Assembly: GCA_034670305.1 (NCBI GenBank)
Contig: JAXMNT010000089.1
Coordinates: forward strand, 1 to 16,860
DNA length: 16,860 nucleotides
DNA from: Deltaproteobacteria bacterium
GTDB lineage: Bacteria > Myxococcota_A > Polyangia > Polyangiales > Houyiibacteriaceae
Direction of reading: 5' to 3'
Position 1 is the first letter of the stretch. The number at the start of each line of letters is the position of its first letter. Position numbers and translations under genes: made by a program. The notes beneath the pieces are model-generated. The model was not told the origin of the DNA. It was given only the letters and a program-made list of their open reading frames with translations, and did no database searches. This document shows, piece after piece, positions 230 to 16,860 of the stretch.

Positions 230-2344
230 TTACTCGCCCTTCGCCTTCGCGATGATCTCTTGTGCGATGTTGGAAGGCACCGCGTCGTATTTGTCGAAAC
301 GCATGGTGTGGACCGCGCGTCCCTGGGTCTTCGACCGAAGATCGGTCGCGTACCCGAACATGGCTGCGAGGGGCACGGTCGCTTTGATGACCTGCATGTT
401 CCCGACCGTGTCCATGTTGGAGAGGTTGCCGCGCCGGGAGTTCAGGTCACCGATGACGTCGCCCATATAGTCCTCGGGCGTCCGAACCTCAACCGCCATT
501 ACGGGCTCGAGCAAGTGAATGCCCGCGAGCTGGCATCCCTCTTGAAAAGCGAGGGATCCGGCGATCTCGAAGGCAGCCTGGCTCGAGTCCACGTCGTGGT
601 AGTTGCCATCGGTCAGCTTCACGTGGACATCGATGACCGGGTAGTTGGCGAGCACGCCGCGGGTCATCGCGTCGCGAATGCCCTTCTCGACCGAAGGAAT
701 GAACTCCTTCGGGATGCTGCCGCCGACGGTCTTGTTCTCGAAGGTGAGTCCGGAGCCTTCTTCGCCCGGGCCGATCTCGATGTAGACGTGGGCGAACATG
801 CCGCGGCCGCCGCTCTGCTTCTTGAGCTTGCCCTCGCACTTCACCCACTCACGAATCGACTCGCGGTAAGCGACCTGGGGCGCGCCGACGTTCGACTCGA
901 CACCGAACTCGCGGCGCAACCGATCGACGAGCACTTCGAGGTGCAGTTCGCCCATGCCGGCGAGGATGGTCTGTCCGGTCTCTTCGTCCGTGTGCGCTTT
1001 GAAGCTCGGGTCTTCGCGTTGGAGTTTGGAGAGCCCTTCGCCGAGTTTCTTGGAGTCGGCTTTGGTCTTGGGCTCGATGGCGATCGAGATGACCGGATCC
1101 GGCAGGTCGATGCGCTCGAGGAGGATCGGGTGCTGGATGGCGCAGAGCGTGTCGCCGGTGTTGACGTTGGAGAGTCCCACCGCGGCCACGATGTTGCCCG
1201 CGAACACTTCTTTGATGTCTTCGCGCGAGTTGGCGTGCATGAGAAGGAGCCGGCCTACGCGCTCCTTCTTGCCGCTGGCGGCGTTGAGCACGGCGGTGCC
1301 GCTCTGGAGCTGTCCGCTGTACACGCGGATGAAGGTCAGCTGCCCGACGTAGGGGTCGTTGATGATCTTGAACGCGAGCGCGGCAAAAGGCGCGTCGTCG
1401 TCGGCTTCGCGGATCAGCTTCTTCTCGGGATCGTCGGGGTCTTCGCCTTCGGTCGGTCGGACGTCGAGCGGGGACGGCAGGTAGTCGACCACCGCGTCGA
1501 GCAGCTGCTGCACACCCTTGTTCTTGAAGGCGGAGCCGCAGAGCACCGGCACGAACACCTGGGTCAGGGTCGCCGTGCGGATGGCGAGTCGAATCTCATC
1601 GGGCGTGAAGTCCGTGTCGTCCTCGAGGAAGCGCGCCATCAGCTTCTCGTCGACTTCGGCCACCGCCTCGAGCAGTTCTTGCCGCGCGAGCGCCGCTTCG
1701 TCGGCGAACTCCGCAGGGATGTCGATGACGTCCCACTCGGCGCCGAGTTTGTCGTCCTGGAATTCGAAGGCGGTCATCGATACGAGATCGATGACGCCAC
1801 GAAGCTCGCCTTCGGAACCGAGCGGGAGCTGGATGGCGATGGCCTTGGCGCCCAGCCGATCTTTGATGCTCTGAAGCGCGCGCGGGAAGTCCGCGCCAAT
1901 CTTGTCCATCTTGTTGATGAAGCAGATTCGGGGCACGCCGTAACGGTCGGCCTGACGCCACACCGTCTCGGACTGAGGTTCGACGCCCTCTTTGCCGTCG
2001 AACACCGCAACCGCACCGTCGAGCACGCGCAACGAACGACCGACCTCGATGGTGAAGTCTACGTGGCCCGGCGTATCGATGATGTTGATGCGGTGTCGGA
2101 GCTCCGCATGCGGACCCTGCTTGGGCTCCCAAAAACAGGTCGTCGCCGCCGAAGTAATCGTGATTCCACGCTCCTGCTCCTGCTCCATGTAATCCATGGT
2201 CGCAGCCCCATCGTGGACTTCGCCGATCTTGTAGTTGACCCCCGTGTAATAGAGGATCCGCTCCGTCGTCGTCGTCTTCCCAGCATCGATGTGAGCCATG
2301 ATGCCGATGTTCCGGGTTCTTTTGAGTGGGTATTCGCGGGGCAC
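230..2344 (-). CDS. fusA: Elongation factor G
   Basis: [33 protein letters not shown] and NKMD motifs. Likely start is GTG at 2344 ([14 protein letters not shown]); the ORF-track start at 2473 is an unlikely extension. Confidence 0.98.
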
Positions 2345-2659
2345 GGGAGGAGTTTTTCGGGGGGAGCGGGCAGGGCTTTCGGGTGAGAAGCGGGAATGCT
2401 TCGGAAAGGTTGTTCCGAGATCGGAACCGGGTGGCTGACGCAAGAAAGCCCCTCCGAGCCTGCCAACCTCCATCGGGTTGGGCGTTTGTTCGGAAGGGGC
2501 TCGAGAGTGAATCGGTGCGAAGTTCTTCGCGTTTCTTCAGCAGGGCTGAACCGGACGTCTCTCGTCTATGGGCGCGTCGTCATCTGTTGGGGCGTGAGCT
2601 CCTCTTCCGAGTGGTTTCCTGCAGCGCAGGACCTGTCCCGGACATGGTCTGAAGTTGGG

Positions 2660-4831: not shown

Positions 4832-6598
4832 TCATTCGGAGGTCAGATCGACCGTCACACTCGTGACTTCGCCCGCTCGAAGCTGAACGGGACGAGGAGA
4901 GGTATAGACCTGGTACCCCTCGGCTGTCACTTCGAAGGTTCGTTCGTCGACCGCGGCGCCCATGGGAATGATGATGAAGTCGCGGGTGCGACCACGGGCT
5001 CCGGCGCCACGACCGGGTCGAACGACCACGTTTCCAGGGCGGGCGACGATGTAGAGGCGGGCTGCGCGGTAAGGAAGCCTCGCCGAGAGGGAGTAGGGGC
5101 CGTTGCCCGGTGGAATGCGCCGCGTGATGCGAAGCACCTCGCAGCAGTCGTCCGTTGGGCGGAACTCGAAGGTGTGGGTCGACCCACTCTGCAGCTCGAC
5201 CTCGAAGAAGGTCGGGCCGAAGGCACGCGGAGGTGCATCGTCCACGCGGATCATCACGTTCTGTGGACTCGGACTGAACTGCACCATGCGCGGCCCGGCC
5301 CGCACGGTGGGCCGACCGGTGTCGCGCCGGGTGGGCCCGGCGTCCACTCGGGTCGGCGCATCTTCTGCGCGCGCGTCTTGTACAGGCGCGTCCGGAGCCG
5401 CGTCGGCGAGCTCGGGCGCATCCGCTCCGCTGTCCTCCAGCACACCGATGCCCGCGTCCGCGACCACCGGATCCGTTCCGTCCGAGGGCCACAGCGCATA
5501 GGTCAGTGCGGCCACACCCAGCACGACCGCGATCACGCCGGCCCACAAGATCTTCGGATCGCCGGTCCCGAGGGAGTCGACCAACTTCAAGACCTGCGCG
5601 TTGCCTTCGTCGAGCGCCAGCACCCGGTTGAACGCATCCAGTGCCGCACTCCGCTGCTTCTTCTGCAGCGCCGCTTTGCCGCGCGCGAGGAGTGCGTCGA
5701 TCGACTGGGTTCGGAGTTCGGCGGCGACGTCCTCCGGGTCCGCGAGGTAGCGGACGAGCAACGCGTCGGGGTCGTCGATGCCCATGCCCCCGACGAAACT
5801 TCGGAGCGCGGCTTCCACATCCGAGACGGACTGAAAGCGGTCTTTCGGGTCGCGTTCCATGCACCGAACGATCGCGGCCGACAGCTCGCTGCCAACGGAC
5901 GGTTTCACCCGAAGCGGGTGCGGGTACTCCGCGTCCATGATGCGCTTGAGCACCTGGTGCGGGTTCTTCCCGGTGAACGGGAGTCGGCCGACCGCGAGGA
6001 AGTAGATGACGGTGCCGAGCGAGAACACATCGGAGCGCTCGTCGACGACACCGGTCTCCACCTGCTCGGGCGCCATGTGGCCTGGAGACCCGAGGATCTG
6101 ACCCGTCGCGGTGAAGGACTGGGCGTCGAGCATCTGCGCGATGCCAAAGTCGGTCAGCTTCACGATCCGTTGCTCGTGAAGGAGCACGTTCTCCGGTTTG
6201 ACGTCCCGGTGCACGATGCCGCGCTGATGCGCGGATGCGAGTGCGCTCGCGATCTGGATCGAGAAACACGCGGCGACCTCGGCCGGGATCTCCGGACCGT
6301 CTTCGACGAAGCGCCGCAGGGTGGGACCGGTCAGCAGCTCGGCTGCGATGAAACTCTCTTCGGAGTCTTCGCCGCTGTAGTCGTAGATCTCGAGGATGTG
6401 GTCGTGTTTGAGCTTCGCGACGCTCTGGGCTTCGCGCGTGAACCGCACCCGGGCTTCGCGGGCCTTCTGCAGATGAGGGTGCAGCACCTTGACCGCCACC
6501 TCGCGGTCGAGACGTTCGTCCCGCGCGCGGTAGACGGTCGCCATCCCCCCGTGGCCGATCTCCTCGAGGAGCTCGTACTTCTCGAGCTTGCGCAACAT
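4832..6598 (-). CDS. Membrane-anchored Hanks-type Ser/Thr protein kinase
   Basis: IGHGGMATVY, VAVKVL, HRDVKPEN, DFG, MAPE and SDVFSLG motifs, followed by a TPR-like helix, a TM segment (ILWAGVIAVVLGVAALTYALW) and a C-terminal extracytoplasmic domain. Confidence 0.96.
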   Translation of the reverse strand: MLRKLEKYELLEEIGHGGMATVYRARDERLDREVAVKVLHPHLQKAREARVRFTREAQSVAKLKHDHILEIYDYSGEDSEESFIAAELLTGPTLRRFVEDGPEIPAEVAACFSIQIASALASAHQRGIVHRDVKPENVLLHEQRIVKLTDFGIAQMLDAQSFTATGQILGSPGHMAPEQVETGVVDERSDVFSLGTVIYFLAVGRLPFTGKNPHQVLKRIMDAEYPHPLRVKPSVGSELSAAIVRCMERDPKDRFQSVSDVEAALRSFVGGMGIDDPDALLVRYLADPEDVAAELRTQSIDALLARGKAALQKKQRSAALDAFNRVLALDEGNAQVLKLVDSLGTGDPKILWAGVIAVVLGVAALTYALWPSDGTDPVVADAGIGVLEDSGADAPELADAAPDAPVQDARAEDAPTRVDAGPTRRDTGRPTVRAGPRMVQFSPSPQNVMIRVDDAPPRAFGPTFFEVELQSGSTHTFEFRPTDDCCEVLRITRRIPPGNGPYSLSARLPYRAARLYIVARPGNVVVRPGRGAGARGRTRDFIIIPMGAAVDERTFEVTAEGYQVYTSPRPVQLRAGEVTSVTVDLTSE

Positions 6599-8078: not shown

Positions 8079-9347
8079 ATGTTCCGCCGCCCGCTGCCGG
8101 GGTGGACCGAAGACCCGGCGACCACCGCGCTCCGGCTGCGATCATTCGGCGGCCTGGCGTGGCTCGACGACGCGTCGGGGGGGCGCAGCTACCTGGGCTG
8201 CGCGCCGGATCGAGTCGTGGGCGGCACACGGTGGCAACAAGCGCTCGGGCCGATGGAATTGTTCCGGCCTGAAGAGCCCGCGGTGCCCTGGTGGATCGGG
8301 TACGTCGCGTACGACCACACAACTTGGTTTGGCCGGTACGATGCGTTGCTCGAGTGGGCGACCGAGGATGGGCGCTCCTCGGTGCACCTGGTGGGCGAAT
8401 CCGAGGCCGCGATGGACGCGTTGGCGGAGAGACTCCGCTCGGAACCGCGGCCAGCCACCGCACGCCTTGGACCACTCTGCGACCCGGATCCGATCGACCA
8501 CACGATGGGCGTGGACGCGGTGAAACACCACATCGCGGCCGGCGACGTCTACCAGGTGAACCTGGCCCGCGCGTGGCGCGCCGACTTCGAAGGAGACGCC
8601 CTGCACCTCTACCTTGCGATGCGCCGCGCGAGTCCCGTGCCACGGGGCGTGTTCCTCGACGCCGGCCCGTGTGGCGTGTGTGCACTGACGATGGAGCGGT
8701 TTCTGGAATGGCACCCCGACGGGGTGGGTCGGGGCGTGGTCCGATCATCGCCCATCAAAGGAACCATTGCGCGCGCCTCGAACCAGGGCGTGGCCGAAGA
8801 CGCCAGCGGCGCCGAGACGCTTCGGGCCGATCCCAAGGAGCACGCCGAACACTCCATGATCGTCGATCTGGTCCGAAACGATCTCGGCCGGGTCGCCGAG
8901 ATCGGGAGCGTGCATGTGGAGGCACTGCTGGAAGTCGAGTCCTACGCCAAGCTGCAACACCTCGTGAGCACGGTGCGGGCCACCACCCGAGAGACGACCT
9001 CCCTCACGTCGCTCCTGGACGCCACGTTCCCGCCCGGGAGCGTGACGGGCGCGCCGAAGGTGTCCGCGATGAAGATCATCGACGCGCTCGAGCCGGAGCC
9101 GCGCGGGATCTACTGCGGCGCGGTCGGCCACGTGGACCGCCGAGGCGGGATCGACTTCGCCGTCGCCATTCGAACCGCGGTCGTGCGCGATGGCCAGGTC
9201 GTCTACCACGCCGGCGGCGGGCTGGTCTGGGCCTCGGACGCGGCCCGAGAGCTCGCCGAAACCGAGCTCAAGGCGCGCGTGTTCTTGGATGCTGCCGCTG
9301 AGATGCGATCGAGCGAGCGCGACGAAGACACCGCGGTTCGCCCGTAG
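8079..9347 (+). CDS. pabB: Chorismate-binding enzyme, aminodeoxychorismate synthase component I / anthranilate synthase component I family
   Basis: GDVYQVNL, SPIKGT, AEHSMIVDLVRNDLGRV, FPPGSVTGAPKV, RGIYCGAVG and AIRT motifs. PIKGT favours PabB over TrpE. Confidence 0.85.
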   Translation: MFRRPLPGWTEDPATTALRLRSFGGLAWLDDASGGRSYLGCAPDRVVGGTRWQQALGPMELFRPEEPAVPWWIGYVAYDHTTWFGRYDALLEWATEDGRSSVHLVGESEAAMDALAERLRSEPRPATARLGPLCDPDPIDHTMGVDAVKHHIAAGDVYQVNLARAWRADFEGDALHLYLAMRRASPVPRGVFLDAGPCGVCALTMERFLEWHPDGVGRGVVRSSPIKGTIARASNQGVAEDASGAETLRADPKEHAEHSMIVDLVRNDLGRVAEIGSVHVEALLEVESYAKLQHLVSTVRATTRETTSLTSLLDATFPPGSVTGAPKVSAMKIIDALEPEPRGIYCGAVGHVDRRGGIDFAVAIRTAVVRDGQVVYHAGGGLVWASDAARELAETELKARVFLDAAAEMRSSERDEDTAVRP

Positions 9348-9427
9348 TTTGCGAGCGAAAACCGCTCATGCATTTGAGTTGCGAAAAGTATCGCGTAAGA
9401 AAATCGATTCAATCTCAACTTGATGCA

Positions 9428-9456
9428 TTGACACGTGAGAGTTGGACCGTTACCAA
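9428..9456 (+). promoter_or_regulatory. Putative sigma70 promoter of the tRNA array
   Basis: Perfect TTGACA (9428-9433), 17-nt spacer, TACCAA (9451-9456), with an AT-rich tract upstream (9360-9427). Confidence 0.55.
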
Positions 9457-9597
9457 GGGTCCATCGTGATTCATCAAACCCATAGGCCCTCCGCGGCCGC
9501 GACCACCCGACCGGGTGTGCAGAGAGTCTCAGGACTCGCTGTGCAACGGCTCTGGTGCGCGCAGTTGGCGGCAGGATCGATGGGGGCGAAAGCCACG

Positions 9598-9726
9598 ATG
9601 TCGACACTCCCAGCGAGTGCCACGAGTGAAAATTACGGAGAAACCCTTTCCCTTGGATTCGGAAAGCCCTGTCTCGATATTCGAGGCGGCCTGACGGTCC
9701 GCGTGGAGGAGGGTTTCCCCGGCTAG
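9598..9726 (+). CDS. Putative attenuator leader peptide (42 aa; alternative in-frame ATG at 9580)
   Basis: MSTLPASATSENYGETLSLGFGKPCLDIRGGLTVRVEEGFPG*. The stop codon lies within the strand complementary to the downstream terminator. Confidence 0.55.
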   Translation: MSTLPASATSENYGETLSLGFGKPCLDIRGGLTVRVEEGFPG

Positions 9727-9768
9727 GGGCGGCAGCCATCTTGAGGTCACTGGGACCTCACTTCGGAC

Positions 9769-9804
9769 GCCGCCCGCGGAAACCCGCTGGCGGCTTTTTT
9801 GTTT
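9769..9804 (+). terminator. Intrinsic terminator/attenuator upstream of the tRNA array
   Basis: GCCGCC-C-GCGG AAAC CCGC-T-GGCGGC followed by TTTTTTGTTT. Confidence 0.8.
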
Positions 9805-9989
9805 CCGTCTGACCCATGACGAAGTTGGCTCGACCACCTTCGAGGAGGATACGTGCGTCCAAATCAAACAAAGCTGTTCCCGTCATTCAAACGAAGATAC
9901 TCGAAAACCAACACTCGATCCCATTGGATTGCCCGACACTGAGCCCGGGTCTTCGCGAATGTTCCGGTGTGGTGATTCGAGAGTCTGAG

Positions 9990-10204
9990 GAGCCTGGACG
10001 GGGCCCCCACCCAAGGGGTCCAACCCGACGTAGAAAATGGAGTGTGTGCCGCTGGGCGGCAGCTGGGTTGTAACCCGTCTTTCCCGAGGGGATTGCCATC
10101 CCCTCCCCCACCAGGCCGAGCCTGGACGGGGCCCCCACCCAAGGGGTCCAACCCGACGTATAAAATGGAGTGTGTGCCGCTGGGCGGCAGCTGGGTTGTA
10201 ACCC
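9990..10204 (+). repeat. 87-bp direct repeat (9990-10076 and 10118-10204) containing the 5' half of tRNA-Tyr
   Basis: Copies are identical except TAGAAAAT vs TATAAAAT, and are separated by a 41-nt hairpin-containing spacer. Confidence 0.95.
10039..10076 (+). pseudogene. Truncated 5' half of tRNA-Tyr
   Basis: Identical to 10167-10204; ends just after the GTA anticodon loop and has no T arm. Confidence 0.85.
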
Positions 10205-10246
10205 CGGTGAAGCGATGTCTTGGAGGTTCGATTCCTTCGCACTCCA
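10167..10246 (+). tRNA. tRNA-Tyr(GTA)
   Basis: Acceptor GGAGTGT/GCACTCC+A; D arm TGCCGC-TGG-GCGGCA; anticodon arm CTGGG-TTGTAAC-CCCGG; long variable region; T arm GGAGG-TTCGATT-CCTTC. Confidence 0.88.
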
Positions 10247-10251
10247 CCCGA

Positions 10252-10445
10252 CCGGCAGGTCGAAAATCATGCAGCCAAACAGAGGGCTTCGGCTCTGCGG
10301 TTCCGAACTCGGCACCGTCCCATGTGCCCTCCGCGAACGCTCCTTCTGGGAGTGCGAGCGAACCCATCCGCGGGCTTCCTGCGGACTGGGACAGGCGAGG
10401 TGCGCCCAGCGTTCGAAGCGTTGGCCGCGCCAGACCGAAACCGTT
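10252..10445 (+). ncRNA. Structured ncRNA resembling the raiA motif RNA
   Basis: GGTCGAAAATCATGCAG...TGCGGTTCCGAACTCGG...CAGGCGAG...AGACC, with a GGTC/GACC closing helix, a long-range GTCCCA/TGGGAC helix and several internal hairpins. Family assignment is from recall and unverified. Confidence 0.55.
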
Positions 10446-10458
10446 CTCTACGAATCAA

Positions 10459-10530
10459 ACCGGACTCTTCCAATGGCCAGGATGCGCGGCTCTGAACCGC
10501 GTGATCGGGGTTCGAGTCCCTGGTCCGGTA
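10459..10530 (+). tRNA. tRNA-Gln(CTG)
   Basis: ACCGGAC/GTCCGGT+A; CGCGG-CTCTGAA-CCGCG; CGGGG-TTCGAGT-CCCTG. Confidence 0.92.
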
Positions 10531-10679
10531 CCGGTGCCCGCCACTACGGCGAACGAAGCACCAAGTTTCATTGACAATCGGGGGATGCGAAGTGGTGTAG
10601 CGCCTGCTTCGCATCGACCAGAGTTTTCGAAGAGCCGTCGTGTTTCGGCGCGGCGTCTCTTCGGAGCTCCTGGTCTTTT

Positions 10680-10752
10680 GGTGTCCATACAGAGGTCTGT
10701 GCGTTCGGTTGTGATCCGAATCGCCGTTGGGGTTCGAGTCCCCCTGGTCACC
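10680..10752 (+). tRNA. tRNA-His(GTG), atypical
   Basis: G-1:C73 extended acceptor GGTGTCCA/TGGTCACC (one T-T mismatch); TTCGG-TTGTGAT-CCGAA; GGGG-TTCGAGT-CCCC; aberrant D arm. Confidence 0.8.
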
Positions 10753-10754
10753 CC

Positions 10755-10904
10755 GGCAGACTGCTGCGCAGTCTGCCCTAGAAGACCTTCGGTCTTCGGC
10801 GCGCTTCAGAAGACGCTCGGTCTTCGGTGCAGCGTGTGTTGAAGACCGAACGTCTTCCTGACGGGCCTGTGGCCCGTCTAGGGCAGAGTGCGCAGCAGTC
10901 TGCC
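10755..10904. repeat. 27-bp inverted repeat enclosing three hairpins
   Basis: 10755-10781 and 10878-10904 are reverse complements with one mismatch. Confidence 0.9.
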
Positions 10905-10907
10905 TTT

Positions 10908-10979
10908 GCGTTCAAAGTGTTGCGGGTCGCACTCTTGGTTTCCACCCAAGCAGCGAGGGTTCGAGCCCCTCTGAACGCT
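10908..10979 (+). tRNA. tRNA-Gly(TCC)
   Basis: GCGTTCA/TGAACGC+T73; CTTGG-TTTCCAC-CCAAG; GAGGG-TTCGAGC-CCCTC; A at position 8. Confidence 0.9.
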
Positions 10980-11036
10980 CTGCCCTCGGCTCCGAATCCG
11001 ACTCCTGAAGAGGAGCGTCGTTCGAAGCCGATAGGA

Positions 11037-11109
11037 GACTCGAAGGCGTATCTGGTGAGCGCGCTTGGTTGAAGCCCAAGAGATGCTGGTTCGATTCCAG
11101 CTCGAGTCA
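11037..11109 (+). tRNA. tRNA-Phe(GAA)
   Basis: GACTCGA/TCGAGTC+A; CTTGG-TTGAAGC-CCAAG; GCTGG-TTCGATT-CCAGC. Confidence 0.9.
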
Positions 11110-11135
11110 CCGTGTTCCGCAGGGAACACACCAAA

Positions 11136-11211
11136 GGGATCGTGGCCCAACTGGGAAGGCACTCGCCTTGCAAGCGAACGATTGCGGGTTCGAATCCCGC
11201 CGATTCCACCA
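11136..11211 (+). tRNA. tRNA-Ala(TGC)
   Basis: GGGATCG/CGATTCC with the G3:U70 Ala determinant; loop CTTGCAA; GCGGG-TTCGAAT-CCCGC; CCA encoded. Confidence 0.95.
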
Positions 11212-11212
11212 A

Positions 11213-11283
11213 CCACCTGTCGTCCAAAGGTAGGACGCCCGTCTGATAAGCAGGAAACGGAAGTTCGAGTCTTCCCAGGTGGA
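11213..11283 (+). tRNA. tRNA-Ile(GAT)
   Basis: CCACCTG/CAGGTGG+A; GTCC/GGAC D stem; loop CTGATAA (stem has one C-A mismatch); GGAAG-TTCGAGT-CTTCC. Confidence 0.85.
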
Positions 11284-11296
11284 CTGATTTCCTGGC

Positions 11297-11561
11297 CTAC
11301 GGGCCTGGCTCGCTTCGCTCGACTGGCGGCCCTAATTCGGCGTCCAGAGCACATCGACGTGCTCGCCGCCTGCGCATTGGGTGCAGAAGAAGCACTTGGG
11401 TCACTTGGCGGCTGCGCGCGGTCGATGCACTCCCGCCGCCTCTATGACTCACTTGGGGAGTGCACCAGTTGCTCGGCCTGCGGCCTGCGCAGGTGCACGC
11501 CAGCGAGTCGCCTGACTCGTCGGCGCTGAGCGAGGTCCTCGCTTCGCTCGACTGGCGGCCC
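11297..11561 (+). repeat. ~260-bp dispersed repeat with terminal direct repeats, copy A (diverged)
   Basis: Starts CTACGGGCCTGGCTCGCTTCGCTCGACTGGCGGCCC; shares the core GGAGTGCACCAGTTGCTCGGCCTGCGGCCTGCGCAGGTGCAC; ends CTCGCTTCGCTCGACTGGCGGCCC. Confidence 0.9.
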
Positions 11562-11587
11562 GCACCCATCACGAACTTGCTCCACCT

Positions 11588-11672
11588 GCCGGGGTGGCGA
11601 AACGGGAAACGCAGCGAGCTCAAACCTCGTGGCCCTCGTGGCATGGGAGTTCGACTCTCCCCCTCGGCACCA
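11588..11672 (+). tRNA. tRNA-Leu(CAA)
   Basis: GCCGGGG/CCTCGGC+A+CCA; GCGAG-CTCAAAC-CTCGT; long variable arm. Confidence 0.94.
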
Positions 11673-11745
11673 ACCTCGCGACCCGACATTCGGGCTCGCG
11701 CAACTTGATGGTCGGCAGCGCCTCGGCGCCGACGACCGCACACCC

Positions 11746-11830
11746 GCCGGTGTGGCGAAACGGTAAACGCAGCGGTTTGAGAGACCGTGGCCCGCATCAG
11801 GGCTTGGGAGTTCGACTCTCCCCTCCGGCA
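11746..11830 (+). tRNA. tRNA-Leu(GAG)
   Basis: GCCGGTG/CTCCGGC+A (one mismatch); GCGGT-TTGAGAG-ACCGT; long variable arm. Confidence 0.92.
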
Positions 11831-11844
11831 CTGGCTTGCTGCCG

Positions 11845-12104
11845 CTACGGGCCTGGCTCGCTTCGCTCGACTGGCGGCCCTAAGTCGCGCCCGTCGCTGC
11901 CTGCACGTGCTCGCCGCCCATTCATTGGTGCGATGAAGAAGCACCTCGGATGATTTGGCGGCTGCGCGCGTCCAGGCGCTCCTTGAGGCGCTCGGTGTGC
12001 ACTGTAGGAGTGCACCAGTTGCTCGCCTTCGGCTGCGCAGGTGCACGAGTGGTGACTTCTTCCTTCTCTGTCAGGCCTGGCTCGCTTCGCGAGACTGGCG
12101 GCCC
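11845..12104 (+). repeat. ~260-bp dispersed repeat, copy B
   Basis: Same terminal repeats and core as copy A. Confidence 0.9.
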
Positions 12105-12115
12105 ACATTTGTTTT

Positions 12116-12189
12116 GCCGCGTTGTGCATCTGGGATGCTGACCCACTGTCTATGGGTCGAGACGGGTTCGATCCCCGTACGTGGCGCCA
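12116..12189 (+). tRNA. tRNA-Asp(GTC) copy 1
   Basis: GCCGCGT/ACGTGGC+G73+CCA; ACCCA-CTGTCTA-TGGGT; ACGGG-TTCGATC-CCCGT. Confidence 0.88.
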
Positions 12190-12229
12190 CCCTTGGCGCG
12201 GGCCGATCCGTCGGCCGCTCGAGGGCTTG

Positions 12230-12303
12230 TGCAGGGAGGGCTGGTCGTCCGACTCAGGTTCATGGCCTGAGACTGCTCAGTTCGACTCTGAGCCCTGCAT
12301 CCA
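12230..12303 (+). tRNA. tRNA with CAT anticodon (Met/fMet/Ile2 unresolved), atypical
   Basis: TGCAGGG/CCCTGCA+T+CCA; TCAGG-TTCATGG-CCTGA; CTCAG-TTCGACT-CTGAG; weak D arm. Confidence 0.8.
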
Positions 12304-12324
12304 TCGGTCGCCCGCGACCGACTT

Positions 12325-12396
12325 GCCGCGTTGTGCATCTGGGTATGCAGACCCGCTGTCTACGGGTTGAGACGGGTTCAATTCCCGTACGTGGCG
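12325..12396 (+). tRNA. tRNA-Asp(GTC) copy 2
   Basis: GCCGCGT/ACGTGGC+G; ACCCG-CTGTCTA-CGGGT; ACGGG-TTCAATT-CCCGT. Confidence 0.88.
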
Positions 12397-12527
12397 CCCA
12401 ACTACATTGAGTTGTCGTTGTCGTTTTTCTCATGGAGGCGCGTTGTCCATTCGTGCCTCACACCTGCGGTCCGTGCGCGGCGGTCCCCTCGACCAGGTCG
12501 AATCGCCGGGCCGCAGGTGGTCTCTCT

Positions 12528-12602
12528 GCCTTCGAAGCGTAGATAGCGACGTCCCTCCGTCGTACCGAGGGGAGTCCGGTGCAAGTCCGGACGAGGGCTC
12601 CA
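12528..12602 (+). tRNA. tRNA-Thr(CGT)
   Basis: GCCTTCG/CGAGGGC+T+CCA; loop GTCGTAC; TCCGG-TGCAAGT-CCGGA (non-TTC T loop). Confidence 0.82.
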
Positions 12603-12712
12603 ACCGTTTCATTCCTGGACCTGTGCCTCGAGTTCCGACTCCAGGCGCTTCGCCGGAATGCCACATCCCAACGTGGGGCCGTCCCGAGCACCGGCTCGGG
12701 GCGCCCTCGCCT

Positions 12713-12783
12713 GCTCCCGTAGTGAAAAGGAATCACGCGAGTCTCCGGAACTCGAAGTCTCTGTTCGAGTCAGAGCGGGAGTG
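12713..12783 (+). tRNA. tRNA-Arg(CCG)
   Basis: GCTCCCG/CGGGAGT+G; GTGA/TCAC D stem; CGAGT-CTCCGGA-ACTCG; CTCTG-TTCGAGT-CAGAG. Confidence 0.92.
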
Positions 12784-12807
12784 CCGATCGCAACTGCGAT
12801 CTCAACC

Positions 12808-12878
12808 GGCGCGTTCATCTAGCGGAAGGATTGCTGGTTCTCAGCCAGTCCACACGGGTTCGAATCCCGTACGCGTCA
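12808..12878 (+). tRNA. tRNA-Glu(CTC)
   Basis: GGCGCGT/ACGCGTC+A; GCTGG-TTCTCAG-CCAGT; ACGGG-TTCGAAT-CCCGT. Confidence 0.92.
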
Positions 12879-12881
12879 CAA

Positions 12882-12958
12882 CCGTGTGTAGCTCAATCTG
12901 GGAGAGCACCCCGTTCGGGTCGGGGAGGCTGGGGGTTCGAATCCCTTCACGCGGACCA
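12882..12958 (+). tRNA. tRNA-Pro(CGG)
   Basis: CCGTGTG/CACGCGG+A+CCA; GCTC/GAGC D stem; CCCCG-TTCGGGT-CGGGG. Confidence 0.95.
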
Positions 12959-12995
12959 AGGCACGCTGTACCCCGTGGTGCGGCGACCTCTTTCT

Positions 12996-13067
12996 ACTCT
13001 CGTGGTGAAGCAGAATCACGCAGGCGTGCGAAGCCTGAGTCCTCCCGTGCGAATCGGAGCGAGAGTG
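12996..13067 (+). tRNA. tRNA-Arg(GCG), atypical
   Basis: ACTCTCG/CGAGAGT+G; GTGA/TCAC D stem; CAGGC-GTGCGAA-GCCTG; imperfect T stem with TGCGAAT loop. Confidence 0.78.
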
Positions 13068-13135
13068 CCGCGGACGGAAACGTCCGAGTGACACGCCGGT
13101 GCGTCCTCATGGGCGCGCCGACGTCCGAAACACAG

Positions 13136-13210
13136 GGCGCGTTCGTCTAGCGGAAGGACCGTTGGTTTTCAGCCAGCACAACACGGGTTCGAATCCCGTA
13201 CGCGTCTCCA
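13136..13210 (+). tRNA. tRNA-Glu(TTC)
   Basis: GGCGCGT/ACGCGTC+T+CCA; GTTGG-TTTTCAG-CCAGC. Confidence 0.92.
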
Positions 13211-13240
13211 GGCCAAGCCGCTTCTGTGACTGGCCTTCAT

Positions 13241-13318
13241 CCGTGTGTAGCTCAATCTGCGAAGAGCACCCCGTTTGGGTCGGGGCGGCTGGGGGTTCGA
13301 ATCCCTTCGCACGGACCA
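13241..13318 (+). tRNA. tRNA-Pro(TGG)
   Basis: CCGTGTG/CGCACGG+A+CCA; CCCCG-TTTGGGT-CGGGG. Confidence 0.94.
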
Positions 13319-13359
13319 ACGATCGTCATGCCGCACCGGTGCCGTGTGGCGGTCGTCTT

Positions 13360-13430
13360 GTACCGGTGTTCTGGGAACGCCGTCGATTGCAACCCGACGA
13401 AGGTGAGTTCGACTCTCACTCGGTACTCCA
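13360..13430 (+). tRNA. tRNA-Cys(GCA), minimal D arm
   Basis: GTACCGG/TCGGTAC+U73 (Cys determinant)+CCA; loop TTGCAAC; GTGAG-TTCGACT-CTCAC; D arm GTTC-TGG-GAAC. Confidence 0.85.
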
Positions 13431-13432
13431 TT

Positions 13433-13504
13433 CGCTGTGTGCCCTGGGGGCCGACGTTCTTCATATGGACGAGCGCGAGGGTTCGATTTCCTCCGCAGCG
13501 ACCA
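13433..13504 (+). tRNA. tRNA with CAT anticodon (Met or Ile2), minimal D arm
   Basis: CGCTGTG/CGCAGCG+A+CCA; D arm GCCC-TGG-GGGC; CGTTC-TTCATAT-GGACG; GAGGG-TTCGATT-TCCTC. Confidence 0.8.
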
Positions 13505-13525
13505 CTCGATGCAACCGCATCGTGC

Positions 13526-13601
13526 GCGGGATGAGTCGTCTGGCGACGACATCGTTTTTACATGGCGACACAGCAGAGTTCGATTCTCTGATCCCGTACC
13601 A
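13526..13601 (+). tRNA. tRNA-Val(TAC)
   Basis: GCGGGAT/ATCCCGT+A+CCA; 6-bp D stem GTCGTC-TGGC-GACGAC; loop TTTACAT; CAGAG-TTCGATT-CTCTG. Confidence 0.88.
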
Positions 13602-13646
13602 CCGGCCGTGAACGCGGCCGGGCCAACGCAGTTGCGACTGCACCCA

Positions 13647-13727
13647 GCCGGGATGGCGAAACGGTAAACGCAGCGAGCTTAGACCTCGTGGCCTCGAGGC
13701 ATGGGAGTTCGACTCTCCCTCCCGGCA
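13647..13727 (+). tRNA. tRNA-Leu(TAG)
   Basis: GCCGGGA/TCCCGGC+A; GCGAG-CTTAGAC-CTCGT; long variable arm. Confidence 0.94.
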
Positions 13728-13739
13728 CTGTATTTCTCA

Positions 13740-13840
13740 CTACGGGCCTGGCTCGCTTCGCGAGACGGTGCCTTCTGAGGGGGAAGGGTTCCCCCTCCGG
13801 CCTTCGGCCTCCTCCCCACCTTGGGCCCTAGGTCGCGCCG
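13740..13840 (+). repeat. Short variant of the dispersed repeat (terminal unit interrupted by palindromes)
   Basis: CTACGGGCCTGGCTCGCTTCGCGAGAC...GGGCCCTAGGTCGCGCC, with GAGGGGGAA-GGG-TTCCCCCTC and GGCC-TTC-GGCC hairpins in between. Confidence 0.75.
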
Positions 13841-13938
13841 CCTGGTCGGCCCCTTTGTCTTCGCGTTTCGGATGGTCCGGGGCGCTTCCTCCACTCTCAC
13901 TCGAAGCGCGTGCACAGCACGCAGGAAGTCATCTCGCC

Positions 13939-14457
13939 ATGCGCACGCTCGTCCTGGATCAGGGCTACCAACCACACCAAATCGTCTCCTGGCAAAAGGC
14001 CGTCACCTTGCTCTACGTGGGCAAGGTGGATGTGCTCGAGGAGTACGAGGACATCATCCGCTCCGTCACGCTCGCGATGCGCATGCCGGCCGTCGTTCGA
14101 CTCCGCAAGGGTGGACACAAGCCGAAGCACCGCATCAAGTTCTCGCGTCTGAACGTCTTCCTTCGGGACGGCTTCCGGTGCCAGTACTGCGGTGAGAAGT
14201 TCCCGATGCGCGACCTCACGTACGACCACGTGCTGCCCAAGGCACACGGAGGAAAGACGACGTGGACGAACATCGTGACCGCTTGCCGAGCGTGCAACGA
14301 GACCAAGGCGAACCGGACGCCAGAGCAGGCCAAGATGCCGCTTCGCAAGAAGCCGGTTCGGCCGACCTGGCTCCCCGGCGGAACAGTGCATGTCGATGCA
14401 TCCCTGGTCCCCGACACCTGGAAGTCCTGGATGTCGTGGACGAAGGTGCTCGCCTAA
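13939..14457 (+). CDS. HNH endonuclease (McrA-like/HNH_5 type, zinc-binding), 172 aa
   Basis: MRTLVLDQGYQP...VFLRDGFRCQYCG...LTYDHVLPKAHGG...NIVTACRACNETK. The ATG at 13939 follows an AGGA SD; the track start at 13768 lies in a repeat. Confidence 0.95.
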   Translation: MRTLVLDQGYQPHQIVSWQKAVTLLYVGKVDVLEEYEDIIRSVTLAMRMPAVVRLRKGGHKPKHRIKFSRLNVFLRDGFRCQYCGEKFPMRDLTYDHVLPKAHGGKTTWTNIVTACRACNETKANRTPEQAKMPLRKKPVRPTWLPGGTVHVDASLVPDTWKSWMSWTKVLA

Positions 14458-14583
14458 GGGCTGAGTTCATTCTGGGTGAGGGCGCTCAATGGTGAGCGCC
14501 CACACCTCCAACGGTCGGTCGAGAGACCGGCTGCGTCGATCCCATGCGTACCACTTCGCCGCGGGCGCATGGGGTCGAGTTCT

Positions 14584-14673
14584 GGAAGAAGATTCGGTGT
14601 GGCACCGAAGACCGTTGGAAGCGGTTCTGCGCGCGGGAACGCGCGAGGGGTTCGACTCCTCCTTCTTCCGCCA
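14584..14673 (+). tRNA. tRNA-Ser(GGA), (8/4) fold
   Basis: 8-bp acceptor GGAAGAAG/CTTCTTCC+G+CCA; 4-bp T stem GGGG/CCTC; loop TTGGAAG; long variable arm CGCGCG-GGAA-CGCGCG. Confidence 0.9.
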
Positions 14674-14933
14674 GTCTCGCGAAGCGAGCCAGGCAACGTG
14701 CAGCGCCAGCGAGTCAGGCATCCCGCGGGTGCACCTGCGCAGGCCGCAGGCCGAGCAACTGGTGCACTCCTACAATGAACACCGAGCGCCCAAGAGGAGC
14801 GCCTGGACGCGCGCAGCCGCCAGTCGTTCCAAGTGCTTTTTCAGTACCCCACTGGGTTGGGCGGCGAGCACGTGCAGGTGCTCCGGGGTGCGACTTAGGG
14901 CCGCCAGTCTCGCGAAGCGAGCCAGGCCCGTAG
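14668..14933 (-). repeat. ~260-bp dispersed repeat, inverted copy
   Basis: Reverse complement of copies A/B; terminal repeats are 233 bp apart; overlaps the CCGCCA end of tRNA-Ser(GGA). Confidence 0.92.
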
Positions 14934-14946
14934 TGGCAATAAAAAA

Positions 14947-15036
14947 GGAAGGCGAACCGGTCGGGTGACCGGAGCTGATTGCTAATCAGTATGGCCCGCA
15001 CGACGGGTTGGGGTTCGAGACCTCCGACTTCCGCCA
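14947..15036 (+). tRNA. tRNA-Ser(GCT), (8/4) fold
   Basis: GGAAGGCG/CGACTTCC (one G-A mismatch)+G+CCA; D arm CCGGTC-GGGT-GACCGG; GCTGA-TTGCTAA-TCAGT; T stem GGGG/CCTC. Confidence 0.92.
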
Positions 15037-15042
15037 TATTGC

Positions 15043-15089
15043 TGGGGGCACAGCCCCCAAGGAATATTTCTTGGGGGCACAGCCCCCAA
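15043..15089. repeat. Doublet of REP-like palindromes TGGGGGCACAGCCCCCAA
   Basis: Two identical palindromes at 15043-15060 and 15072-15089. Confidence 0.85.
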
Positions 15090-15197
15090 ACCCCGTCCCG
15101 GTGACACCGCTGGCTCGCTTCGCGAGGCTGCACGCTGTCGAATATTCGGAAGCTCCTGGAGCAGGGAGTGTCTTCAAAGGCCGGCGAAGCCGGGGCT

Positions 15198-15257
15198 CAC
15201 GTACACGTGCACGTACTCGTAGACGTGCACGTATTCGTGAGCGTCCTCGTACCCGTT
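15198..15257. repeat. Degenerate hexamer tandem repeat (NNCGTN x10)
   Basis: cacgta cacgtg cacgta ctcgta gacgtg cacgta ttcgtg agcgtc ctcgta cccgtt. Confidence 0.85.
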
Positions 15258-15336
15258 CAGCACATCTTGGAGAGCATCGAGACCACCCGAACGAGGAGCT
15301 GCCCTCGCGGTGAGTCTGCTCGCCCCCAAGAAATAT

Positions 15337-15408
15337 TCTGGAGTAGCTCAGTGGCAGAGCACCGGCTTGTTAAGTCGACGTGGGTGGGTTCGATTCCCTC
15401 CTCCAGAG
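15337..15408 (+). tRNA. tRNA-Asn(GTT)
   Basis: TCTGGAG/CTCCAGA+G73; TAGCTCAGTGGCAGAGC D arm; loop TTGTTAA; T loop TTCGATT. Confidence 0.9.
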
Positions 15409-15462
15409 CCGCCAAAGATCTCGTGGCCTTGCGAGTGTCTGCGCTCTGCGTACCGTGGGCGT

Positions 15463-15915
15463 ATGCAACCATCGTCGTTCGACTCGTTGCCTGGTATCGC
15501 GGCCATCGGCTACGGGGGCGCAAACCTAGTCCTGCGTGTCCGCGACGCGCGCGGGCGCTGGCTTCGCGTTCACGAAGACGGGGCGCTCGAGATCGCACGC
15601 GGCGACGCGCGGACGGAGCGCGAACGCGTCGACGCAGGTGCGCTGTCGGGACCCGCTCCTCTTGCACTCATCGACTCTCTGCATCGCGACCTCGTCTCGC
15701 ACCCGCTCACGAAGCCGTCTCCATGGCCGCGCTTCTACCCCTTGCAGGTCTTCCGCTGGCGCGAACATCCTTCTGACGACGCGGAGCTCGTCGAGGGATA
15801 CATTGGAATCGAGTCCGAGATGGGTTGCATCGTCGACGTGTTCGGTGTGCGTGGTCGGCAAGGGCGCGAGATCGTCGGGGCGCTCAATGAGCTCCTCTCC
15901 GCCATGCCACGCTGA
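15463..15915 (+). CDS. Hypothetical protein, 150 aa
   Basis: High GC at third codon positions; ATG lies 6 nt after a TTGCGA-16nt-TACCGT promoter-like site. The track start at 15310 overlaps tRNA-Asn. No family recognised. Confidence 0.65.
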   Translation: MQPSSFDSLPGIAAIGYGGANLVLRVRDARGRWLRVHEDGALEIARGDARTERERVDAGALSGPAPLALIDSLHRDLVSHPLTKPSPWPRFYPLQVFRWREHPSDDAELVEGYIGIESEMGCIVDVFGVRGRQGREIVGALNELLSAMPR

Positions 15916-16042
15916 CCCGCGCGCTGCGCTTGGATCTGCACAGGGCGCGACTTGGACCCAGGGGAGAAGGCGTGCTTGCACGCCGAGGGGGACTCCAGCT
16001 CCCTCGCCAGCGCCAAACGCGCGATGCCCTTGCCCTTAAGGT

Positions 16043-16168
16043 GCGGTTCTGCGGCTCTGCGGTCCTGCGGTCCTGGGGCAAGGGCACGGGCAAGGGTCCG
16101 TAAGGGCAAGGGTCCGTAAGGGCACGGGCAAGGGTCCGTAAGGGCAAGGGCAAGGGTCCGTAAGGGGA
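16043..16168. repeat. Short tandem repeats (GCGGTCCT-like x4, then an AGGGCA / AGGGTCCGTA mosaic)
   Basis: Directly visible 8-, 6- and 10-nt periodicity. Confidence 0.9.
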
Positions 16169-16204
16169 CGCGAAGCGAGCCAGGCCCGTGCCCCCAAGGA
16201 ATAG

Positions 16205-16297
16205 GGAAGGTGACCCGGTCACTGGTGTCCGGAGCCGCCTCGAAAGCGGTGTGCGCCCAGAAATGGGTGTGGGGTTCGATTCCTCTGCCTTCCTCCA
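16205..16297 (+). tRNA. tRNA-Ser(CGA), probable (8/4) fold
   Basis: GGAAGGTG/TGCCTTCC+T+CCA; GCCGC-CTCGAAA-GCGGT; variable arm GCGCCCA-GAAA-TGGGTGT; T stem GGGG/CCTC. Confidence 0.9.
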
Positions 16298-16500: not shown

Positions 16501-16860
16501 AGTCTCGCGAAGCGAGCCAGGCCCGAACAGCGCCTGCGAGTCAGGCATCTCCGCGTGTGCACCTGCGCAGGCCGCAGGCCGAGCAACTGGTGCACTCCCA
16601 AATGGAACACCGAGCGCCCAAGAGGAGCGCCTGGACGCGCGCAGCCGCCAGTCGTTTCAAGTGCTTCTTCAGTACCCCAGTTGATCGGGCGGCGAGCACG
16701 TGCAGGTGCTCCGGGGCGCGACTTAGGGCCGCCAGTCTCGCGAAGCGAGCCAGGCCCGAACAGCGCCTGCGAGTCAGGCATCTCCGCGTGTGCACCTGCG
16801 CAGGCCGCAGGCCGAGCAACTGGTGCACTCCCAAATGGAACACCGAGCGCCCAAGAGGAG
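16501..16860 (-). repeat. Dispersed repeat in head-to-tail tandem (233-bp period), runs off window end
   Basis: 16734-16860 is identical to 16501-16627; homologous to 14668-14933. Confidence 0.95.

Follow-up and report, generated by a model that had tools for sequence, protein, structure and literature searches.

Classical attenuators, such as those of trp, his, leu, thr and pheA, combine a leader open reading frame (ORF) and a terminator with a stop codon placed just before a competing strand, and the position of the ribosome serves as the signal. For whiB7 of mycobacteria and other actinobacteria, it was reported that an upstream ORF (uORF), variable in length and sequence, is followed by a Rho-independent terminator, and that efficient uORF translation leads to termination, while drugs or the knock-down of tRNAs, synthetases or amino-acid synthesis lead to antitermination (10.1101/2023.06.02.543512). 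Mycobacterial leaderless polycysteine short ORFs were described as sensory elements at the head of operons, where stalling remodels the downstream RNA structure (10.1101/834739). In Anabaena, the trn operon, a long array of supernumerary tRNA genes to which an HNH gene is linked, is normally silent and is induced by impaired translation through a mechanism acting at the promoter level (PMC8421152). Long accessory tRNA arrays are widespread and horizontally spread, and this cyanobacterium is the only one for which their control is known. The subject of the present analysis is a compact promoter-to-terminator module of about 380 nt, which precedes an accessory tRNA array in a myxobacterial genome and that could report global translation capacity. 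It lies on contig JAXMNT010000089.1, the whole of which (16,860 bp) is here called the window, in a genome of 7.9 Mb distributed over 105 contigs. An earlier note on this DNA had proposed a leader-peptide transcription attenuator within this module, and that interpretation was partly supported by the results given below.

In the window, a predicted promoter (P1) is followed by a leader frame, a Shine-Dalgarno (SD)-like box, a stop codon with an adjoining G-rich strand (G-box) and an intrinsic terminator (T1), and then by co-oriented tRNA genes (Table 1). The same anatomy was found in 16 genomes belonging to 11 genera and two families of one myxobacterial order, and 15 of these 16 modules are located 190-560 nt upstream of a long tRNA array in the same orientation, forming a comparative set with variable frames and several terminator variants. 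It is proposed, with a probability of roughly 0.55, that the module is a ribosome-dependent attenuator of the whiB7-uORF type, leaderless or nearly so, which gates the accessory tRNA array. As judged from sequence, transcription would start at P1, the frame would be translated, timely translation would set the switch to OFF and the array would be supplied from P1, so that the module probably allows the tRNA bank to switch on when protein synthesis slows.

The likeness to whiB7 lies in the variable uORF, the Rho-independent terminator and a sensor that appears generic, with no run of a single amino acid (10.1101/2023.06.02.543512). Unlike whiB7, the module is found in Myxococcota-type genomes, has its start codon at the promoter in a leaderless geometry and has as its output a tRNA array and an HNH gene instead of a transcription factor, so that the response would amount to direct feedback on the translation machinery. 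Nothing comparable to the alanine enrichment of 25-40% reported for whiB7 was noticed here, no dedicated test having been made (10.1101/2023.06.02.543512). By analogy, the module would work like the whiB7 family, of which it is not a member, given that the downstream genes and the phylum differ. With the classical attenuators it shares the leader ORF, the intrinsic terminator and a stop codon in front of a strand that competes for the terminator 5' arm, but it has no codon run, frames of 27-121 codons versus about 14-30, no Shine-Dalgarno leader and tRNAs as the regulated genes; a match to the Rfam model Leu_leader was rejected, being on the wrong strand and having 16.7 bits where the gathering score is 50. 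Like the Anabaena array, the present one is long, supernumerary and linked to an HNH gene, whereas the words attenuator, leader and terminator are absent from the main text of that report and a translated leader and a terminator would be conserved here (PMC8421152). A leaderless sensory ORF at the head of an operon would be shared with the polycysteine ORFs, which differ in their codon tract, absent here, and in their target, which here would be an intrinsic terminator before non-coding genes (10.1101/834739). In the literature searched in full text (supplements excepted), no attenuator or leader ORF was described before a tRNA array. If the proposal is correct, it would represent, within that literature, the first ribosome-dependent attenuator with tRNA genes as its output, and would add, by a different mechanism, a second route to the physiology of the cyanobacterial array, serving the arrays of a whole myxobacterial order.

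Table 1. Coordinates of the features of the window, in order of position.
Feature	Position	Strand	Details
Elongation factor G (EF-G) gene	230-2473	-	
Ser/Thr kinase gene	4832-6598	-	
Chorismate-binding enzyme gene	8079-9347	+	PabB is the best score, under the equivalog cut-offs
AT-rich stretch	9381-9427	+	5' of the -35 box; UP-element-like; includes ATCGATTCAATC
Promoter P1 (predicted)	9428-9456	+	-35 TTGACA 9428-9433; 17-nt spacer; -10 TACCAA 9451-9456
Leader ORF	9466-9726	+	GTG start 9 nt past the -10 box; 86 codons; TAG stop 9724-9726
Long imperfect hairpin	9636-9722	+	CCCUUUCCCUU paired with the GGAGGAGGG box; includes helix 9640-9647:9710-9717; minimum free energy (MFE) folds
SD-like box	9705-9713	+	GGAGGAGGG; ends 11 nt ahead of the stop codon
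Stop codon and G-box	9724-9733	+	TAG and GGGCGGC; putative antiterminator 5' strand; complementary to 9769-9775
Small hairpin	9742-9760	+	Between G-box and terminator
Intrinsic terminator T1	9769-9804	+	GCCGCC-C-GCGG / AAAC / CCGC-T-GGCGGC, then TTTTTTGTTT
Spacer	9805-10165	+	T1 to first tRNA
Accessory array	10166-16297	+	24 tRNA genes, all on this strand (ARAGORN)
HNH endonuclease gene	13768-14457	+	Within the array; Pfam HNH_5 and HNH

The geometry of P1, that is, TTGAC(A/G/C) followed by exactly 17 nt and a -10 box, recurs in all 15 aligned modules and also in G010, and the -10 box reads TAnnnn in 14 of the 15 (CATCTT in G007). When each promoter was scored with a leave-one-out position weight matrix built from the other 14, P1 reached 5.3-22.8 bits, with at least 12.8 bits in 13 of 15. 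In every one of the 15, the sequence ahead of TTGAC is AT-rich, and the stretch in the window may act as an UP element; together with the G+C-rich stretch past the -10 box, this would give P1 the appearance of a stable-RNA promoter. The conserved start codon, ATG or GTG, is placed 6-10 nt past the -10 box in 16/16 modules, and it shares its frame with the conserved stop in 15/15 as well as in G010. If P1 is used as predicted, the mRNA would carry 0 to about 3 untranslated 5' nucleotides and would thus be leaderless or nearly so. A simple scan for promoters and terminators with strict rules picked up neither P1 nor T1, the hairpin of the latter being missed because of its 1x1 internal loop. Short AT-rich words of the ATCGATTC or TCAATC type recur 5' of P1 (9381-9427 in the window) and in the spacer past the terminator in many genomes, and may represent a candidate regulator binding site.

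The 15 frames comprise 1326 codons and contain no in-frame stop, compared with 24.5 expected from two alternative frames (49 stops in 2652 codons), giving a Poisson P of about 2e-11; taken individually, shuffles of the first ten frames gave a probability of being open of 0.06-0.67 each. The stop codon is TAG in 10/16 modules, as opposed to 30% of the long ORFs of this genome (P 0.008). Just ahead of it, an SD-like pentamer ends 2-11 nt 5' of the stop in 14/15 modules, and the 16S rRNA 3' end of this genome has the usual CCUCC. This box behaves as a motif at the RNA level, since in G006 it is located in a different reading frame. Its partner in the window, CCCUUUCCCUU, lies about 50 nt upstream; the GGAGG box of relatives often pairs instead with a CCUCC a few nucleotides upstream. 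A GGYGG-type box adjoins or overlaps the stop in most relatives, and in the window the G-box is the best partner within the ORF for the terminator 5' arm.

A terminator hairpin of 6+3-5 bp with a U-run is found 24-54 nt 3' of the stop in 15/15 modules, and one or two hairpins of different sequence take the place of the small hairpin of the window in relatives. Over the 15 sequences, 94.5% of the terminator cells are paired, three inner pairs show compensatory changes and the covariation score was matched by 0/500 shuffles, while the outer six pairs are invariant apart from two wobble changes in G006. Its recurrence in 15 genomes, accompanied by compensatory changes, shows the T1 hairpin to be real; the consensus structure of the alignment of relatives consists of the terminator alone. 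In the window, a 225-nt fold has -98.6 kcal/mol (z -2.32, with 1/200 shuffles as good) and a 365-nt fold covering 9440-9804 has -166.1 kcal/mol (z -3.51, with 0/100 shuffles as good), and in both of them the G-box is paired with the T1 5' arm. In this window the tRNA models of Rfam alone reach their gathering scores; within 9200-10200, three Rfam matches were obtained, all on the minus strand, with E values of at least 1 and far under the gathering scores.

The mechanism that these elements suggest can be formulated as follows. P1 would start a transcript with its first codon, GTG 9466, at the 5' end itself or no more than about 3 nt from it, and a ribosome would translate the 86-codon frame, the product of which is unconserved. 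This frame would bring the ribosome to TAG 9724, immediately 5' of the G-rich strand 9727-9733, the potential partner of the T1 5' arm. A ribosome keeping up with the polymerase would sit on the stop codon and cover the G-box, so that the terminator would form and the transcript would end after about 335 nt (OFF), and the GGAGG box 11 nt upstream, together with a proline near the C-terminus, may help to hold the ribosome there. When initiation or elongation lags, as under shortage of any of many tRNAs, amino-acid starvation or ribosome-targeting drugs, the G-box or another G-rich part of the frame would pair with the T1 5' arm as it emerges, and the polymerase would continue into the tRNA genes and the HNH gene (ON). 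The footprint of a ribosome that has the stop codon in the A site extends about 12 nt downstream, and the geometry of the module fits such masking, as the ribosome at the stop would cover the G-box and not the terminator.

The distribution of the module was approached by several routes. A BLAST search with the 818-nt gap that separates the PabB-like gene from the first array tRNA gave matches limited to the terminator segment in 7/87 other genomes of the family, and all seven loci have a co-oriented tRNA array downstream, with 4-11 detected genes. A scan for the terminator pattern gave 52 places in 46/401 genomes of the order; among the 30 places inspected, 10 have co-oriented tRNAs within 1.5 kb and all 10 carry the module, and the other 20 have no tRNAs and appear to be coding sequence or unrelated hairpins. 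One genome of that scan, G396, is unpublished and underlies none of the statements made here. Among the 22 places outside the inspected set, one (G004) proved to be a member through a different route, in which the HNH gene was used as the starting point so that the family was not defined by its terminator. In this case, 20 HNH regions were inspected, of which five hold arrays with upstream DNA (G004, G006, G016, G013 and G103), and all five carry the module, with terminators of different sequence; the remainder consist of one array cut by a contig end (G014) and 14 array-less regions from two genera. In G010 (L173), the module, with promoter, ATG, 38 codons, TAG and terminator, stands directly before the HNH gene, which follows about 230 nt past the terminator, and no tRNA gene is present in the 3-kb locus. 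This arrangement suggests that control by the module may extend beyond the tRNAs to the HNH gene. A scan across genome contigs showed the terminator pattern to be generic across phyla, with arrays downstream at 3/80 loci among the matches listed; the loci L073, L083 and L101 carry the same module. No module was found outside the order in a phylum-wide sample of 401 genomes, and three palindromic terminators of another family were discarded as candidates, there being no tRNAs nearby.

The region between T1 and the array bears on whether the array would be fed from P1, as sequence scoring suggests. The spacer of the window contains no P1-type promoter (best site 1.5 bits, against a shuffle mean of 5.8). 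Among the spacers of the 15 genomes, measured from the terminator to the first detected tRNA, the best sites score 0.9-8.8 bits and are no better than shuffles in 14/15, the exception being G007 (p 0.035). Downstream small ORFs in this region (a GTG at about 9853 and an ORF at 9816-10073) were considered and rejected, as their frame is not kept in relatives (G019 stops after six codons) and strain variants differ in this region or lack it. An 87-nt direct repeat, at 9990-10076 and 10118-10204 and 99% identical, duplicates the 5' half of the tRNA-Tyr and 48 nt of its upstream flank, and the strain contigs X5 and X6 bridge the region without this duplication. In G004 (L204), four tandem copies of GGGCTGGAGAGTCT follow the terminator. 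An element of the form yTTTGACAAtCG with a G+C-rich hairpin occurs 27-110 nt before a tRNA in eight genomes; in the window it lies inside the array, at 10571-10625, and it is also present in G005, G019, G017, G131, G007, G013 and G103 (loci L027, L028, L031, L021, L035, L209 and L210). It contains a perfect -35 hexamer and no recognisable -10 box, and its hairpin stem differs among genomes, with a loop that is often GGTGTAGCGCC.

Evidence for the antiterminator pairing was sought by folding and by duplex energies. In folds of RNA lacking the terminator 3' arm, the partner of the 5' arm is the stop-adjacent box in 8/10 genomes and a G-rich site 34-39 nt upstream in the other two. Additionally, the stop region ranks among the best 10% of 24-nt ORF windows as a partner in 6/15 genomes and above the median in 13/15 (Fisher P 6e-5, with genomes treated as independent). 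The pairing is thus consistent with these results, without proof from covariation.

Several observations weigh against the proposed attenuator. As a partner, the stop region does not exceed the ORF median in G043 and G103 and falls outside the top three in G012, G043 and G017, and in a duplex test the stop regions paired with their own terminator arms at -13.9 kcal/mol and with foreign arms at -12.7 kcal/mol; because foreign arms pair nearly as well, the antiterminator has no true covariation behind it, and the outer terminator stem is uninformative in this respect, being invariant. MFE folds with the full terminator form it without a ribosome in 6/10 cases, so that the naked RNA may be OFF by default, and not ON. 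G131 and G007 each have a weak P1 that scores lower than the best site in their own spacer. The TTTGACAAtCG element could be a candidate internal promoter, through which part of the array would be expressed independently of the leader, or alternatively a processing signal. In G012, G047, G004 and G006 (L034, L033, L204 and L205), a second G+C-rich hairpin with a T-run occurs 10-20 nt before the tRNA-Tyr, so that two terminator-like signals lie between P1 and the array in these four genomes. Finally, certain peptide motifs, an N-terminal T-H/Q-x-R and a C-terminal L-E-V/E-x-P, are conserved in the leader peptides and would also be compatible with a small disordered protein.

The explanation built on this last point is that 9466-9726 is an independent gene for a small, largely disordered protein belonging to the array, with T1 as its own terminator and the tRNAs transcribed from other promoters. 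The N-terminus MFTRSH is common to G013 and G019 with four synonymous differences, which is what conservation at the amino-acid level would leave, and a recurrent F-G motif uses varied codons; the TTTGACAAtCG element and its hairpin offer a candidate internal promoter before the tRNAs in eight genomes, and the full-length folds mostly have the terminator formed. However, the middle of the peptide is unconserved and unalignable even inside one genus, where the frames are 46-57% identical at the DNA level and the substitutions are spread evenly over the codon positions, with no third-position bias. The length varies from 27 to 121 codons, the shortest being the frame of 27-28 codons in G007, and no Pfam or NCBIfam family was found for any of the 15 peptides. 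The F-G motif lies 13 to 39 residues from the C-terminus, and this variable distance also led to the rejection of an arrest peptide acting through F-G at a fixed distance from the stop. A protein-coding function would explain neither the GGAGG box that is kept in another frame in G006 nor the stop that always adjoins a strand complementary to the terminator arm, and no promoter of the P1 class is present between T1 and the first tRNA in 14/15 genomes. Taken together, a small-protein gene appears unlikely, although more probable than the explanations that follow.

Less probable still is a translated leader combined with a constitutive, leaky terminator and no switch, in which translation would protect the 5' region (e.g., from Rho or nucleases) and T1 would provide a fixed low read-through or insulation from the upstream genes. 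A frame maintained without conservation of its peptide, a strong and conserved T1 and the lack of covariation support for an antiterminator would all be expected in such a case. It does not account, however, for the fixed placement of the stop, the SD-like box and the complementary strand within 24-54 nt of the terminator across 15 genomes, nor for an outer terminator stem that never varies next to an inner one that covaries.

The exact version put forward in the earlier note is a further alternative: a 42-codon peptide starting at ATG 9598, an anti-antiterminator helix formed by 9640-9647 and 9710-9717, and an antiterminator formed by 9711-9718 with 9778-9785 and by 9727-9733 with 9769-9775. 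Every string was found where it had been placed, as GAAACCCT (9640-9647) has its reverse complement in AGGGTTTC (9710-9717), GGGTTTCC (9711-9718) in GGAAACCC (9778-9785) and GGGCGGC (9727-9733) in GCCGCCC (9769-9775), with a hairpin and T-run at 9769-9800. The ORF at 9598-9726 likewise has the described 42 sense codons, 30 of them distinct, with 17 amino acids and 17/42 codons ending in A/T, and it contains no run of a single amino acid, which makes a generic translation sensor the natural reading and matches the whiB7 uORF, for which this logic was established by experiment (10.1101/2023.06.02.543512). No homopolymeric tract is present in any of the 15 leader peptides, so that the codon run of an amino-acid-specific sensor of the trp/his/leu type was not found.

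The start and the first two helices of that version fared less well. Strain variants were collected as contigs from four metagenome runs, aligned to 9350-10300 and 90-99% alike, and in these ATG 9598 is replaced by GCG in X6 and X8 and by TTG in X5 and X9. Relatives conserve no internal start, and the promoter-proximal start is present in 16/16 modules; the frame that contains 9598-9726 is in fact already open from 9442, with GTG 9466 as its conserved start, so that the 42-codon leader exists in the same frame and constitutes the 3' part of a longer one. The first helix lies within the predicted long hairpin and survives the variant A9643G as a G-U pair, whereas the pairing to the terminator loop does not occur in relatives and, in X9, is weakened by the change C9783A; single 8-bp complements are expected by chance at about this frequency within 225 nt, and both helices are specific to this genome. 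What is conserved in relatives is the frame and, in place of these helices, a box of the GGAGG type, placed 2-11 nt 5' of the stop and frequently paired with an upstream CCUCC. The central observation, that the leader frame ends directly before a G-rich strand able to pair with the T1 5' arm, is kept before the arrays of 15 genomes. The exact version is therefore very improbable.

The strain contigs also show how the frame varies. Positions 9598-9669 are variable, mostly through non-synonymous changes, and, among the differences listed, 9670-9740 are invariant in all four runs. Three indel events fall within the frame (9608-9614) and all three have a net length of +3, while the two that fall outside it (9761 and 9794) are both +1. 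The third-position G+C content (GC3) of the frame is 0.60-0.65 (0.60 for 9598-9726), compared with 0.78-0.84 in four neighbouring genes, and its codon usage is poor throughout. A non-coding structured RNA, either a small RNA or a long 3' untranslated region of the PabB-like gene with an incidental open frame, would agree with this GC3 (against about 0.82 in genes), with the poor codon usage and with the strong predicted structure (z -3.5), but it is scarcely credible given the frame that is open in 15/15 modules (P ~2e-11), the exclusively in-frame indels inside it, the promoter placed directly at the start codon, a PabB-like gene upstream in just 5 of the first 10 modules and the lack of any Rfam match. 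The frame is thus likely to be translated, as its statistics suggest.

Returning to the ribosome-dependent attenuator, a more far-reaching formulation can be offered tentatively, as one that may well prove wrong. In this formulation, the module would act as a 'translation speedometer', in which a leaderless frame of about 30-120 arbitrary codons is raced against RNA polymerase, only a ribosome that arrives at the stop in time permits the terminator to form, and a global slowing of translation switches on back-up tRNAs and the HNH nuclease. Vertical inheritance would then have preserved the module in 11 or more genera of a single myxobacterial order and, if the speedometer exists, it would constitute a homeostatic loop acting on the tRNA pool itself.

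As to the setting, two frames of high GC3, of 156 and 132 codons, lie between the EF-G and Ser/Thr kinase genes and are candidates for rpsG and rpsL, from size and position alone. The tRNA genes of the window span 6.1 kb, and the genome has 89 tRNA genes in total and one tmRNA, with 65 of the tRNA genes outside the array; the 24 genes can therefore be regarded as an accessory array, because a full tRNA set is present on other contigs. The features of a long tRNA gene array (L-array) are all present, namely tandem, co-oriented and supernumerary tRNAs with a linked HNH gene (PMC8421152). The Rfam gathering score is reached by 15/24 of the ARAGORN genes (14 as tRNA and one as tRNA-Sec), and many array tRNAs are therefore non-canonical. 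Among them is a tRNA-Arg with anticodon GCG, and the last gene (16204-16297), called Ser(CGA) by ARAGORN, narrowly passes the Rfam tRNA-Sec model (48.2 bits against a threshold of 47).

Homologues of the array HNH protein are present in 79/88 genomes of the family, at 52-77% identity, and they lie inside the arrays of relatives, while those of two array-less genera sit close to single tRNA genes; the HNH domain itself scores weakly with the NCBIfam models for the HNH domains of IscB and Cas9. A palindromic repeat with core CTGGCTCGCTTCGCGAGACTGGCGGCCC and longer flanking repeats occurs in many copies and in both orientations between the tRNA genes (11297-11339, 11845-11887, 12069-12111, 13740-13782, 14668-14938 and 16501-16860), resembling a small mobile element or one of the repetitive extragenic palindromic (REP) type, and the contig end falls within one copy. 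Tandem repeats of about 22 nt (AAGGGCACGGGCAAGGGTCCGT) are found at 16080-16172, directly 5' of the last tRNA.

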